Origin: Planctomycetota bacterium
GTDB taxonomy: Bacteria > Planctomycetota > MHYJ01 > JACQXL01 > CAKKQI01
Assembly: GCA_030633885.1 (NCBI GenBank)
Contig: DAOWBV010000001.1
Coordinates: forward strand, 1-54,168
DNA: 54,168 nucleotides
Direction: 5' to 3'
The first letter of the stretch is position 1. Every line of letters begins with the position of its first letter. Of the stretch, positions 10,891 through 51,244 are shown piece by piece. Both the position numbers and the translations under genes were made by a program. The notes under the pieces were generated by a model. It worked only from the letters and a program-made list of their open reading frames with translations. It searched no databases and was not told the DNA's origin.

Positions 10891-11011
10891 CCCCGTTAGA
10901 GATAGGTCGTCCATTCGGAACGACCGTTGTTTGGGATATTCTCTAAGGGCGGTTTTTGTATTTCCTATGTCTAAATATTTTCGTTAGAAATTTTAACCAT
11001 CTCTAACGGGG
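10891..11011 (-). mobile_element. MITE-like TIR element (CCCCGTTAGAGAT family), copy in the rplL-rpoB spacer
   Basis: CCCCGTTAGAGAT at 10891-10903 and ATCTCTAACGGGG at 10999-11011 are a perfect 13-nt inverted repeat. The element is flanked by direct TAAA at 10887-10890 and 11012-11015. A subterminal hairpin GGTCGTCC-attc-GGAACGACC next to the left end on the plus strand orients the element with the minus-strand genes. Confidence 0.8.
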
Positions 11012-18930: not shown

Positions 18931-19536
18931 ATGAAAAATAATGGGTTTACCCCGTTAAAGATCAGGAAAATTTTTGCTAAAAGTATTTGGGACCTGGCAA
19001 CTAAACAAACCTTCGTTAGAAACTATACAATGCCGCGGTCGTTCCGGAAGAACGACCTATCTCTAACGGGGTTTACCCTAATCGAACTATTAGTCGTAAT
19101 AGGTATTATTGCCATCCTGGCCGGATTAATTATTCCCAACCTGATCGGCGTCCAGGGCAGCGCGGCCGAAGCTGGCGCCCGGACCGAGATCGCCGGTCTG
19201 GTCGAGGCCCTGACTATGTATGAAATGGATAACGGCGCCTACCCGGCCCACGATTCCAGCTTCTCCAGCCTGGTTCTGATCAACGAACTCAGCGGCGATC
19301 GCAACACGGATCCGCCGAAACCACGTTATTTTTCGTTTAAGAAAAAAAGAATTGAAGACAATTGGTATTACAGTCCCCTGAACTTTCCGTATTTTTATCA
19401 GGAAAACGCGTCAGACCCGGACAACATGACCGGCAAACATCACCCGCCTCATGATCCGGAAACGTTTGACATCTGGACGCGCAGCCGCAAAGATACCAAA
19501 GATGGTCTGAAAGACGGATTAAACAGTTGGAATTAA
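18931..19536 (+). CDS. GspG/PulG-like major pseudopilin with an element-expanded leader
   Basis: The ATG at 18931 lies 7 nt after GGAGA (the longest ORF starts at 18916). It reads MKNNGFT, then a 42-codon in-frame insertion, then GFTLIELLVVIGIIAILAGLIIPNL...EALTMYEMDNGAYP, a class III signal plus GspG-like body. An internal in-frame ATG lies at 19030. Confidence 0.85.
   Translation: MKNNGFTPLKIRKIFAKSIWDLATKQTFVRNYTMPRSFRKNDLSLTGFTLIELLVVIGIIAILAGLIIPNLIGVQGSAAEAGARTEIAGLVEALTMYEMDNGAYPAHDSSFSSLVLINELSGDRNTDPPKPRYFSFKKKRIEDNWYYSPLNFPYFYQENASDPDNMTGKHHPPHDPETFDIWTRSRKDTKDGLKDGLNSWN
18950..19071 (+). mobile_element. MITE-like TIR element, copy inside the pseudopilin 1 leader
   Basis: CCCCGTTAAAGAT (18950-62) and ATCTCTAACGGGG (19059-71), with direct TTTA at 18946-49 and 19072-75. 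Element plus one duplication is 126 nt, which is in frame. The subterminal hairpin is GGTCGTTCC-gga-AGAACGACC. Confidence 0.8.
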
Positions 19537-19540
19537 CCTG

Positions 19541-20323
19541 ATGAAGAATTCAGCGGGGTTCGTTCCGAATAAACCAAAAGAAGTATTAGTCCACGGTCCC
19601 TTCCCGCCTCTTTGGAGCGAGGCTCGCCCAACAAAGTTGGGCGGCGGGTTCACCCCGTTAGAAATCACTGAAATTTCCAATACAAGTAATGCAATAAACA
19701 TGCAAAACAAACAAATCCGTGACAGAAAGTATGCTATGCAACGGTCGTCACGACCGGACGACCTACCCCGACATAACGGTCGGGGCGGGTCTCTAACGGG
19801 GTTCGCTGAACGCGGTCCCTTCGGGTTCACCATTTTAGAATTATTGGTCATCATAACCGTTATTCTGGTTCTGACCACGATTACCGTCGTCGCTTTGGGC
19901 TCCCTGGGTGAAAAAGGTAATGTCACAGCAACTGAAGGATTAATCAAAAGCATCGAAATTGCCCTGACCAATTACAAAGAGGTTTTTCCGGAATACCCGC
20001 CCAGCGACCAGAGAACCTGGAAAGGATCTCAAAATCTTTATCACTACCTGACCAAAAAACTTGAGTATCACATGTTTTTCGATCCGGTCCTGGGAACTTC
20101 GGAGAAAAAAGAATTCCACGCCGGATTACGTTTTAAAAAACAGTATTTGGATCATGAAAAATACGTAATTGATCCCTGGGGTAACCGGCTAACTTACAAA
20201 AATCCCGGAACAAACCACCGGTCAAGCGGTGGCAAAAACAATAGTTCTTACGTGGATATTGAATCCAATGGTCCAAGCGCTGCGCCGGACGATAATATCA
20301 ACAACTGGTCTTTAAATAAGTGA
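19541..20323 (+). CDS. pseudopilin (G-like) with a 95-residue composite leader
   Basis: MKNSAGF, then 89 inserted residues, then GFTILELLVIITVILVLTTITVVALG. GGGTTC occurs four times in frame (19556, 19646, 19799, 19823). Only the last is followed by the hydrophobic helix with Glu at +5. Confidence 0.8.
   Translation: MKNSAGFVPNKPKEVLVHGPFPPLWSEARPTKLGGGFTPLEITEISNTSNAINMQNKQIRDRKYAMQRSSRPDDLPRHNGRGGSLTGFAERGPFGFTILELLVIITVILVLTTITVVALGSLGEKGNVTATEGLIKSIEIALTNYKEVFPEYPPSDQRTWKGSQNLYHYLTKKLEYHMFFDPVLGTSEKKEFHAGLRFKKQYLDHEKYVIDPWGNRLTYKNPGTNHRSSGGKNNSSYVDIESNGPSAAPDDNINNWSLNK
19556..19828 (+). repeat. tandem in-frame insertions between four GGGTTC repeats in the pseudopilin 2 leader
   Basis: Three units of 90 nt (19556-19645, carrying the GC palindrome and the hairpin GCCCAAC-aaa-GTTGGGC), 153 nt (carrying the TIR element) and 24 nt (19799-19822). 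The first and third units share GGGGTTCG...CGGTCCCTTC. Confidence 0.75.
19653..19801 (+). mobile_element. MITE-like TIR element, long variant, inside the pseudopilin 2 leader
   Basis: CCCCGTTAGAAAT (19653-65) and GTCTCTAACGGGG (ending at 19801). Flanks are TTCA (19649-52) and TTCG (19802-05). It has two internal hairpins (GGTCGTC...GACGACC and CCCCGAC-ataac-GGTCGGGG) and in-frame ATGs at 19700 and 19736. Confidence 0.8.
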
Positions 20324-20438
20324 GTTGTCAGGATATTTCTCCGACAGCTCACTCTGAGTGATAACGAAGGATCAATAAGGTTTTTTAACTCTTTAAGTTT
20401 CAGGATGATCTTGTATTGAAATAAAAAAACCGGGTTCA

Positions 20439-20610
20439 CCTCGTTAGAGATCACTGAAACCTGCCCGATTGTCCTGTCAGGCGGGTTTCCATTAAAAGTA
20501 TTTTAAACATGCAAAATAAACAAATCCGTGCCAGAAAATATGCTATGCAACGGTCGTCCCGACCGGACGACCTATCCCGACATAACGGTCGGGGTGGGTC
20601 TTTAACGGGG
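20439..20610 (+). mobile_element. MITE-like TIR element, long variant, separating the vestigial leader from pseudopilin 3
   Basis: CCTCGTTAGAGAT (20439-51) and GTCTTTAACGGGG (ending at 20610), with direct TTCA at 20435-38 and 20611-14. Length plus duplication is 176 nt, which is out of frame. In the upstream frame it carries TAA at 20504-06, and ATGs at 20509 and 20545 in the pilin frame. Confidence 0.8.
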
Positions 20611-21159
20611 TTCACCCTGATCGAACTGATAGTGGTCATCAGTATTATTGTCCTCATGACCTCCATCTCTATGGTTTTTGTTTCCAAATTCATCAAAAGC
20701 GAAAATCTTAAACATGGCGGATTGATTCTCCGGACAACTTTTATGAAAGTCCGCCAGTTAGCCGCTACCCAACGGATCATGCACTTTCTGGTTTTCGAAC
20801 CGAATACCTCTTCAATGACTATATATAAAGACATTAATGAAAATCAAACCTGGGACAAGAATACCGATGAACAAGTCGATGAAACTATTGGATTACCAGA
20901 AGGGATCAGTTTTTTGAGCGGGCCTGATGGTCCGCCGCTTTTTAATTTACCTGAGCCGTACCTGTACCTGGGCTTCCGGACGGACGCCTCCCTGATGATG
21001 CCAACCGGTATTTCTGATCAGTCCTTGGTCCACCCGCCCAAAATCAAGGAAACGGATATTGTTCTGAAACAGAAAAACCAACCGAAAACAAAAATGTATA
21101 TTGACTTCGAACGCGGAACCGCTAAAATAAGAGTGCTGTTTTTATACACGGAAAAATAA
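20509..21159 (+). CDS. GspH/FimT-like minor pseudopilin initiating inside the element
   Basis: MQNKQIRARKYAMQRSSRPDDLSRHNGRGGSLTG|FTLIELIVVISIIVLMTSISMVF, followed by a GspH-like body. All residues before the Gly-Phe cleavage motif are encoded by the inserted element. Confidence 0.8.
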   Translation: MQNKQIRARKYAMQRSSRPDDLSRHNGRGGSLTGFTLIELIVVISIIVLMTSISMVFVSKFIKSENLKHGGLILRTTFMKVRQLAATQRIMHFLVFEPNTSSMTIYKDINENQTWDKNTDEQVDETIGLPEGISFLSGPDGPPLFNLPEPYLYLGFRTDASLMMPTGISDQSLVHPPKIKETDIVLKQKNQPKTKMYIDFERGTAKIRVLFLYTEK

Positions 21160-21858: not shown

Positions 21859-21948
21859 ATGGCAAGAAATAATAACGGTTTTACCCCGTTAGAGATCACG
21901 AAAACCTGCCCGACTGTCCGGCAGGCAGGTCAGGCGGGTCTCCATTAA
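21859..21948 (+). other. mini-ORF containing the ancestral prepilin leader of pseudopilin 5
   Basis: The ATG at 21859 lies 4 nt after the stop of the preceding gene. It reads MARNNNGFT, then runs into the element (PLEITKTCPTVRQAGQAGLH) and stops at TAA 21946-48, 13 nt before the ATG at 21962. Confidence 0.55.
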
Positions 21949-22039
21949 AAGTATTTTAACCATGCAAATTAAACAAGTTTTTGTTAGAACACAATCAATG
22001 CGACGGTCGTCCCGAAAAGACGACCTATCTCTAGCGGGG
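21884..22039 (+). mobile_element. MITE-like TIR element separating the ancestral leader from pseudopilin 5
   Basis: CCCCGTTAGAGAT (21884-96) and ATCTCTAGCGGGG (22027-39), with direct TTTA at 21880-83 and 22040-43. Length plus duplication is 160 nt, which is out of frame. It holds a nested CCTGCC...GGCAGG palindrome and the hairpin GGTCGTCCC-gaaaa-GACGACC. Confidence 0.8.
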
Positions 22040-40193: not shown

Positions 40194-40305
40194 CCCCGTT
40201 AGAGACCTACTGCAACCGTTACGTCGGAGTAGATCACCTTGAAATATATGCCTGTTAATCGTAATTTCAACTTTTGACCATTCTGAAAACCCGTCTCTAA
40301 CGGGG
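40194..40305 (-). mobile_element. MITE-like TIR element, copy in the rpmC-dksA spacer
   Basis: CCCCGTTAGAGAC (40194-206) and GTCTCTAACGGGG (40293-305). The right end is 1 nt from the rpmC stop codon (40307-09). Flanks TCTA and CTTA are only approximately duplicated. The subterminal hairpin (CTACT...AGTAG) has a different sequence but the same position. Confidence 0.7.
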
Positions 40306-51156: not shown

Positions 51157-51205
51157 CCCATTAGAGCTACCGGTCGTCAAGTAAAGACGACCTACCTCTA
51201 ACGGG
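51157..51205 (+). repeat. 49-nt miniature version of the TIR element
   Basis: CCCATTAGAG (51157-66), GGTCGTC-aagtaaa-GACGACC, then CTCTAACGGG (51196-205). It consists of the two termini plus the subterminal hairpin only. It is opposite in orientation to the surrounding genes and has no clear flanking duplication. Confidence 0.65.
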
Positions 51206-51244
51206 ACAAGCGGGAAAAATTTATCAGTGAATATCTGCGAAATC

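Follow-up and report, generated by a model that had tools for sequence, protein, structure and literature searches.

The 5′ end of a planctomycete pseudopilin gene is probably a stack of small mobile hairpin repeats inserted at its prepilin cleavage codons

The DNA analysed here, which we call the window, comprises 54,168 nucleotides of contig DAOWBV010000001.1 from a 2.04-Mb metagenome-assembled genome (MAG) labelled Planctomycetota (G000; 241 contigs, short-read, 47% G+C), and it contains five adjacent pseudopilin genes. We found that the 5′ end of the second gene, pseudopilin 2, probably consists of stacked small mobile hairpin repeats inserted at the Gly-Phe-Thr codons (GGG TTC ACC) of a short class III signal, MKNSAG/FTILE (slashes mark the Gly/Phe junction). 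An initial annotation of the sequence had read this region as repeated insertion between four GGGTTC repeats, and the comparisons reported below support that reading: the three inserted units are members of dispersed repeat families, the sites in relatives are empty, and an allele exists that lacks the 24-nt unit. The genomes compared throughout are short-read MAGs, and taxon labels are as given by depositors (for example, “Candidatus Brocadiaceae bacterium” for genome G001 and “Planctomycetota bacterium” for a 53%-identical homologue).

As first annotated, GGGTTC occurs on the plus strand at 19556, 19646, 19799 and 19823, with spacings of 90, 153 and 24 nt that all keep the frame of the open reading frame (ORF), and only the last copy precedes the signal core: TILELLVIITVIL follows this GGGTTC alone, and the class III core there reads G/FTILELLVIITVIL. 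Because the hexamer is rare in the window (just 20 plus-strand copies in 54 kb, below shuffled sequences), four copies within 295 nt, where about 0.1 are expected, are far beyond chance. The protein matches Pfam T2SSG and NCBIfam GspG, and its mature part aligns with orthologues over the full length, stop-free and at 40-55% identity. From 19823 it reads ..GPFG/FTILELLVIITVILVLTTITVV, with the Gly at -1, Phe or Met at +1, Glu at +5 and roughly 20 hydrophobic residues that define a class III signal. The leader in front of this signal has 95 residues when counted from the ATG at 19541 to the Gly codon at 19823-19825, well outside the roughly 5-30 residues of a short basic leader, and 42 or 30 residues when counted from the internal ATGs at 19700 and 19736, both of which are in frame as annotated. 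We refer to the 90-, 153- and 24-nt units as units A, B and C (Table 1).

The 153-nt unit had been called a terminal inverted-repeat element, and this holds, with perfect inverted termini of 11-12 nt at 19652-19662 and 19792-19802. The terminal 12-mer is enriched in the window (16 matches versus 4.0 ± 1.7 in shuffles), and G000 as a whole contains 54-70 paired copies of the element, 61-250 nt long and in both orientations. Identical 4-nt flanks border 45 of 69 G000 copies and co-vary among them; read in the orientation of the element they are TTGA in about 27, TTTA in 8, TTAA in 3 and TTCA in 2, with TAAG, TTCG, TGAA and TCAG as well. Since these flanks are both identical and co-varying, they represent a target-site duplication (TTNA) and not a fixed end of the element. 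Compensatory changes keep a subterminal hairpin across copies (GGTCGCC/GGCGACC, GGTCGTC/GACGACC, GGTCACC/GGTGACC and GGCCGCC/GGCGGCC); it usually abuts the right repeat, and in unit B it stands 26 nt off, beyond a nested hairpin. Unit B is 91% identical to the copy at 20439-20610. The element thus has the features of a miniature inverted-repeat transposable element (MITE), being small and non-coding (its only frame is that of the host ORF), with terminal inverted repeats, a target duplication, dispersed copies, and presence or absence among relatives. Two other models of the element were rejected. An IS200/IS605-type (PATE) model is ruled out by flanks that co-vary as true duplications. For a DDE-type autonomous partner, none of the repeat pairs spaced 0.26-4 kb apart in G000 has a transposase between its members, and a 1.1-kb repeat pair in G011 proved to consist of an ExeA-like ATPase gene with separate small elements on its two sides.

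Within coding sequence, the element is found almost entirely at one kind of site. It sits exactly at the Gly/Phe junction in 8-10 of about 18 G000 prepilin genes, always in sense orientation, and four of the five adjacent pseudopilin genes in the window carry it (18950-19071, 19653-19801, 20439-20610 and 21884-22039). Prepilin genes account for all coding insertions in G000 besides a few copies in open frames of 106-125 aa without a recognisable gene. Within the order, genomes of three families have 5-66 matches each to the terminal 12-mer, while two further families have essentially none; the same is true of the remaining 25 genomes searched from the class. In species-representative genomes, the right repeat abutting F-T-L-x-E (the junction TCTCTAACGGGG-TTYACN-YTN-NTN-GAR) is present at more than 117 loci, labelled Omnitrophota (most), many lineages of the candidate phyla radiation (CPR), Planctomycetota, Riflebacteria, Ratteibacteria, Elusimicrobia, Nitrospirota and Auribacterota, in a census that covers prepilin-junction copies only. 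A left repeat behind GGN-TTYA also occurs at 99 of 129 such sites, with 88 of the 99 in frame and 86 stop-free. The flanks at these 99 loci are concordant in 92 (TTTA/TTTA in 76, TTCA/TTCA in 16) and discordant in 7. The left Gly codon varies (GGG, GGT, GGA or GGC), as host codons do, and the right one is always GGG, in a search whose pattern fixed the right end including this codon. Exactly CCCCGTTAGAG stands as the left repeat at 79 of the 99 loci, which indicates that constraint on the peptide P-L-E alone is insufficient to fix the codons. The interiors of the elements range from 5 to more than 250 nt and share no common peptide.

The geometry of the element ends permits such insertions to accumulate. 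Given the host sequence GGN-TTYA-CCN, an element that starts with CCCC, ends with GGGG and duplicates TTYA produces GGN TTY ACC CCG TTA GAG (G-F-T-P-L-E) at the left junction and TCT CTA ACG GGG TTY ACC (S-L-T-G/F-T) at the right. The GGGG end together with the TTYA duplication rebuilds GGG-TTY-ACC on both sides, keeping Gly before Phe and offering two fresh targets, and this rebuilding accounts for the pile-up of units. The earlier suggestion that each insertion regenerates its target accordingly stands for the inverted-repeat element, and tandem pile-ups recur, with about eight tandem junctions of the form ..CTAACGGGG-TTGA-CCCCGTTAGA.. in G000 and tandem junctions in about 10 of 129 prepilin leaders elsewhere. 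In the 3094 region of L015, a Candidatus Jorgensenbacteria MAG of the CPR, two near-identical 80-nt copies stand in tandem in one prepilin leader, joined by GGGG-CTCA-CCCC. The leader of a type IV pilin stays cytoplasmic and is removed by prepilin peptidase, a gene for which is present in G000 (Peptidase_A24 on C173, 71 bits, above cut-off). Insertions would survive because whatever lies upstream of the last Gly is removed by this peptidase, so that extra codons would cost little. A working gene would be expected only where the insertion is in sense orientation and either in frame and stop-free or bringing its own ATG. In reverse orientation the consensus end reads ..G TGA TCT CTA ACG GGG, with a stop four codons before the Gly, which explains why the pilin copies are all sense.

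Related genomes preserve the uninserted state. Syntenic orthologues in six genomes of the same order have leaders of 4-10 residues (MRKNRG/F, MKKNSG/F, MSKKG/F, MDNKVNCKNG/F, MSIRERG/F and MNKIKG/F), each directly after a GspG-like gene that ends in ..INNWD and its stop codon, and nearly all leaders in the five-gene cluster of those genomes are short. These short leaders identify the sites of the relatives as empty. Comparison of related genomes did not reveal the case that would speak for a genuine protein domain, namely the same long leader with conserved residues and diverged DNA. G008 (L007, G008:C132) has an unrelated inverted-repeat element, CCCAGCACATAA..TTATGTGCTGGG, in front of its pseudopilin 2 orthologue at the same site, GGG-TTTA-CC; this element gives the leader MRRRGFT..(32 aa)..LCAG/FTLIELL and indicates that the site attracts more than one repeat family. 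A small GC hairpin occupies the same leader site in G014, and a different mosaic that includes the right end TCTCTCACGGGG is found in G001, a family-level relative.

These comparisons also bear on whether the repeat-built region is instead a selected functional module, either a hairpin in mRNA or DNA that regulates pseudopilin expression or a leader domain that functions in its own right. Such a role would suit terminal repeats that are conserved at the nucleotide level across phyla and always meet the same codons, as well as the strong fold of the region (-105 kcal/mol over 310 nt) and the presence of the element in four of the five cluster genes. However, the orthologues in the six same-order genomes do without the element, its interior conserves neither length nor peptide, the family also occupies about 60 intergenic sites in both orientations, its co-varying flanks are a mark of transposition, and an Rfam scan of the whole window at the gathering threshold matched no family. 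We regard a functional module as improbable.

Alleles from other samples differ in the number of units. The 90%-identity protein cluster of pseudopilin 2 has six members, three of which are the 260-aa form on independent contigs. A 252-aa member on contig L133 (ENA ERZ23498471, another sample) lacks exactly 19799-19822, the 24-nt unit C, and its inverted-repeat element has a perfect TTCA/TTCA duplication; the junction without the 24-nt unit reads TCTTTAACG/GGGTTCACCATT. Because 11 of 30 21-mers across the L133 junction are missing from G000, this allele did not arise by mixing k-mers of the window itself. Judged from the sequences, the TTCG to the right of unit B in the window is a former right duplication copy, TTCA. 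The L133 allele appears compatible with unit C arriving after unit B, and it removes the need for the reverse order, in which the inverted-repeat element inserted into the 5′ end of an existing 24-nt unit; unit C was gained or lost recently between closely related populations, and a gain and a loss by slippage between GGGTTC repeats would fit equally well. L133 also shows single-nucleotide polymorphism (SNP) states reciprocally swapped between the element copies of pseudopilins 2 and 3 (window 19695-20613), and its 3′ end runs in the order intergenic sequence, left part of copy 3, core of copy 2, 24-nt unit and pseudopilin 2 body again. Contig L134 (ENA ERZ23498405, a further sample) begins with the same join of copy 3 and copy 2; the samples behind L133 and L134 are SAMN18200496 and SAMN18200497. 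These joins may reflect recombination, tandem duplication or gene conversion between the 91%-identical copies, or mis-assembly, and near-identical copies in adjacent genes seem to drive recombination within the pseudopilin cluster. An artefact in the window itself, with repeats wrongly threaded into the gene start, might be suspected in a repeat-rich short-read MAG of 241 contigs whose sister assemblies have odd joins in this region. Yet an identical 260-aa product is found on three further independent contigs of 9, 41 and 54 kb, more than 100 unrelated assemblies show this architecture as well, and the frame is intact through all three units; an artefact is the explanation to which we give the least credence.

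Units A and C come from a second hairpin family. The distinct GC palindrome that had been noticed in the 90-nt unit is present (CGCCCAAC/GTTGGGCG), and so is the sequence said to be shared by the 24- and 90-nt units, each of which contains CGGGGTTCG and CGGTCCCTTC. Common membership of one hairpin family, (G)GTTCGCT..CGCGGTCCCTTCGGGTTC, accounts for the GGGGTTCG and CGGTCCCTTC found in both unit A and unit C; the core of this family has 17 G000 copies at ≤2 mismatches, and the family's own ends read GGGTTCG. Further copies of the unit C family lie at C20:1573, at C50:1718 (nested in another inverted-repeat element) and on C73, C105 and C197. Unit A can be aligned over its whole length to about 781-875 of G000 contig C200, and over part of it to C73; since the whole composite is aligned at C200, unit A probably arrived as one piece. 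The core of its GC double hairpin, GCGAGGCTCGCCCA, has 27 G000 copies at ≤1 mismatch, including one at window 708 (708-760), outside the pilin cluster, and one GC double-hairpin copy lies directly 3′ of a GIY-YIG paralogue on C149. At C24:16230 and C190:1154 in G000, and in the fifth pseudopilin of L008/L010, leaders are lengthened by GC-rich hairpin repeats encoding ..RSSEN(K/E)GG.. or ..SRRSENRPRSG. Leader stacking by several repeat families seems to be general in the order.

The layout of the gene points to the original ATG at 19541 as the most likely translation start, which would give the 95-residue leader; starts at 19700 and 19736, in addition or instead, are possible. The ATG at 19541 lies 4 nt past the stop of the upstream GspG-like gene, the same placing as in the orthologues. 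The frame from it is open through 47 inserted codons before 19700, which would occur by chance in about 1% of cases (a base-composition estimate that includes the need to be in frame), and the open upstream frame in 86 of the 99 cross-phylum copies suggests that read-through from the original start is the norm. The same insertions could be combined with a start at the element ATG 19700 or 19736; 19541-19699 would then either stay untranslated or act as a short ORF upstream, and the signal would have 30-42 residues. We consider this version unlikely but worth serious attention, as the out-of-frame copies in pseudopilins 3 and 5 (176 and 160 nt with the duplication) leave only the equivalent ATGs usable: the counterparts at 20509 and 21962 open these two ORFs, the upstream frames are closed and no other usable starts exist. 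The old pseudopilin 5 leader, ATGGCAAGAAATAATAACGGTTTT (MARNNNGF), is left stranded upstream at 21859. The ATG and the basic peptide M(Q/R)RSSR..DDLSLTG are a subfamily feature that is also present in intergenic copies, with the ATG at 19736 kept in most subfamily copies (including intergenic C83, C155 and C116), and a gene caller picked an internal ATG on one contig (P0007). Gene callers in fact choose inconsistent starts for this one gene, giving 260, 252 and 207 aa. As for ribosome binding, an internal start gains nothing, as none of the three candidate starts has a clear Shine-Dalgarno sequence, which this genome rarely uses.

The open frame also argues against the inserts being skipped or removed to leave a short leader, whether by ribosome hopping between GGG-TTC codons, by RNA excision or by a reversible phase switch of DNA excision or inversion. 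Such mechanisms would suit the matched codons on both sides of each insert, the hairpins after the first GGG TTC, the inverted repeats bordering a variable segment and the difference in insert content among alleles. However, skipping would place no pressure on the frame, yet 86 of the 99 cross-phylum copies are in frame and stop-free; the would-be take-off codon is not followed by a stop, the 5-nt spacers in some copies (L019) cannot invert, and no recombinase gene was seen next to the cluster. We consider skipping or removal very improbable. Programmed translational bypass of the T4 gene 60 or mitochondrial byp type was rejected specifically, as the matched GGG TTC codons are present but the gaps are in frame and stop-free with no stop after the first site, and an invertible switch is ruled out by the in-frame statistics and the 5-nt spacers.

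Table 1. Features of the pseudopilin 2 leader and copies of the inverted-repeat element in the window
Feature	Position	Strand	Description
Pseudopilin 2 ORF, GspG-like	19541..20323	+	260 aa from first ATG
Original short leader remnant	19541..19561	+	ATG AAG AAT TCA GCG GGG TTC (MKNSAG/F)
Unit A (90-nt unit), composite hairpin repeat	19556..19652	+	GGGTTCG..CGGTCCCTTC frame around nested GC double hairpin
GC double hairpin nested in unit A	19603..19646	+	CCCGCC..GGAGCGAGGCTCGCCCAAC-AAA-GTTGGGCGGCG
Left target-site duplication TTCA	19649..19652	+	flank of unit B
Unit B, non-autonomous inverted-repeat element	19653..19801	+	149 nt (153 with one duplication copy)
Left terminal inverted repeat CCCCGTTAGAAA	19653..19664	+	translated (T)PLE(I)
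Internal ATG of element subfamily	19700..19702	+	42-residue leader
Second internal ATG	19736..19738	+	30-residue leader, MQRSSRPDDL..SLTG..
Subterminal hairpin GGTCGTC-acgaccg-GACGACC	19743..19763	+	part of unit B
Small GC hairpin nested in unit B, CCCCGAC-ataacg-GTCGGGG	19766..19785	+	otherwise only in copy 20439-20610 and, longer, C24:8542
Right terminal inverted repeat TCTCTAACGGGG	19790..19801	+	translated SLTG
Unit C (24-nt unit), short hairpin repeat GGGTTCGCTGAACGCGGTCCCTTC	19799..19822	+	absent from sister allele L133
Right flank TTCG	19802..19805	+	now read as first bases of unit C
Class III signal	19823..19888	+	Gly(-1) 19823-25, Phe(+1) 19826-28, Glu(+5), hydrophobic helix FTILELLVIITVILVLTTITVV
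Element in pseudopilin 1	18950..19071	+	122 nt, TTTA/TTTA, in frame, open
Element in pseudopilin 3	20439..20610	+	172 nt, TTCA/TTCA, out of frame; start forced to element ATG
Element in pseudopilin 5	21884..22039	+	156 nt, TTTA/TTTA, out of frame
Intergenic copy, subfamily of unit B	10891..11011	-	terminal-repeat match
Intergenic copy of inverted-repeat family	40194..40305	-	terminal-repeat match

Sequence comparison suggests that the likely mobilising enzyme of the element is a GIY-YIG nuclease. In three other genomes (L034, L082 and L102), the same repeats enclose a GIY-YIG ORF of about 86 codons that has no stop of its own and reads ..KRFL-SLTG/FTLIE into the pilin. In G000, a 280-nt copy on C97 carries, between CCCCGTTAGTGA and TTACTAACGGGG, the gene for an 86-aa GIY-YIG nuclease, which matches Pfam PF01541 (E = 3e-17) and has the UPF0213 protein 1ZG2 as its nearest solved structure (E = 3e-7). 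This copy is at a non-pilin site, where the flank supplies its stop, and a 73-nt derivative lies next to it. Many short copies elsewhere retain the ..RFL-SLTG end, as expected of deletion derivatives. The recognition site of the nuclease probably combines the terminal repeat with the subterminal hairpin. We tentatively extend this reading to one family of ultra-small DNA parasites spread across phyla, with an autonomous nuclease form of about 280 nt and derivatives of 30-190 nt, that would home to prepilin Gly-Phe-Thr codons, have their product removed with the leader by prepilin peptidase (the proteolytic equivalent of intein or intron removal) and stack, and whose nuclease would be a new class of transposase making 4-nt duplications; as a whole, this extension is plausible but rather more doubtful than the reading of the pseudopilin 2 leader itself. 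Further small GIY-YIG paralogues are present on C149 (1217-1560), C211, C71, C170 and C210, and the GC double hairpin directly after the C149 paralogue hints that each hairpin family may have its own nuclease. At about 3300-3900 of C97 (minus strand), the nuclease copy and its 73-nt derivative are bracketed by a duplication of about 50 nt of a host gene 3′ end (..IDNGFGAGYAAALI..).

Outside the pilin genes, the intergenic G000 copies (C84, C137, C145, C157, C229, C54, C127, C71 and others) are mostly flanked by TTGA then C[CA]. The left junction of many copies reads TTGACC-N17-TATNAT into the element, and the right one reads TTGACA/TTGACC-N16-17-TATAAT in host DNA, both sigma-70-like. The element seems to land in, and to rebuild, -35 boxes at intergenic sites. 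A lone right end of the element (GGTCGTC-aagtaaa-GACGACCTACCTCTAACGGGA) stands at window 51171-51206, outside the pilin cluster.

Several observations weigh against the insertion reading or its parts. In the window, unit B is bordered on the right by TTCG instead of TTCA. As a bare target, TTNAC occurs too often to account by itself for the roughly ten-fold excess of pilin over intergenic sites, so recognition must reach into GG..CC unless most other insertions are lost to selection. The contigs that carry the alleles are short-read assemblies of a repeat region, and given the SNP swap a part of the allelic difference could be recombination or assembly error. To our knowledge, a 95-residue leader is far beyond any class III signal that is processed, and as pseudopilins 3 and 5 must start inside the element, the same may hold for pseudopilin 2. 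We also know of no GIY-YIG enzyme that makes 4-nt duplications.

The element resembles several known systems and differs from each. Ssn nucleases (Chenal et al. 2025, PMC11893778) are very small single-domain GIY-YIG proteins of the cd10448 clade that cleave single-stranded DNA site-specifically at a hairpin repeat, NTS/SRM, copies of which flank them or occur alongside them in tens to hundreds. Similarly, the C97 nuclease lies between repeats present about 70 times in G000 with another copy adjoining, and the C149 paralogue is followed by a copy of the GC hairpin family. In contrast, the repeats and hairpin of the element are unlike the NTS/SRM consensus (CGTCATTCCCGCG..GCGGGAATC) when compared by eye. 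The element described here is also bounded, has 4-nt duplications that co-vary, is missing from empty sites and prefers a coding target, none of which is described for NTS/SRM in the sections of that source drawn on here (PMC11893778). Rickettsia palindromic elements (RPEs) are selfish palindromic repeats found in frame in protein-coding genes (PMC10969869). Like RPEs, the units in pseudopilin 2 are short palindromic repeats within ORFs, overwhelmingly in frame and read as extra peptide without killing the gene; whereas RPEs are spread over many unrelated genes, at places in the mature protein that are compatible with its surface, the insertions found here hit the same codon triplet in a single protein class, within a part that is cut off after translation, and the family spans several phyla. 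It shares with MITEs such as the Correia element a length of about 100-200 nt, terminal inverted repeats, target duplication, many copies, nested or tandem arrangement and outward promoter-like ends, but its putative autonomous partner is a unit of about 280 nt with only a GIY-YIG nuclease and not a DDE transposase, and its preference for a coding target is strong. Homing endonuclease genes, inteins and introns likewise combine a selfish element and a GIY-YIG nuclease with a highly conserved site in a widespread gene and a product that is removed from the host protein; unlike these, removal here would be performed by the host signal peptidase and not by self-splicing, and the target duplications point to a transposition-like insertion and not to the homologous-repair copying of homing endonuclease genes. 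Literature searches combining prepilin with inverted repeat or Omnitrophica, and GIY-YIG with pilin leader, returned no description of repeats targeted to prepilin cleavage codons.

These data suggest that, where a pilin or pseudopilin of Planctomycetota, Omnitrophota or CPR has an odd or long N-terminus, the extra sequence can be insertional junk rather than a domain. The series of leaders produced by such insertions provides a natural test of the length of class III leader that prepilin peptidase accepts, and the nuclease-bearing copies connect tiny GIY-YIG nucleases with the spread of hairpin repeats in a way that can be tested. If the reading proposed here is true, the pseudopilin 2 leader would offer a clean example from nature of a mobile element that selects a site where the translated product is later thrown away.

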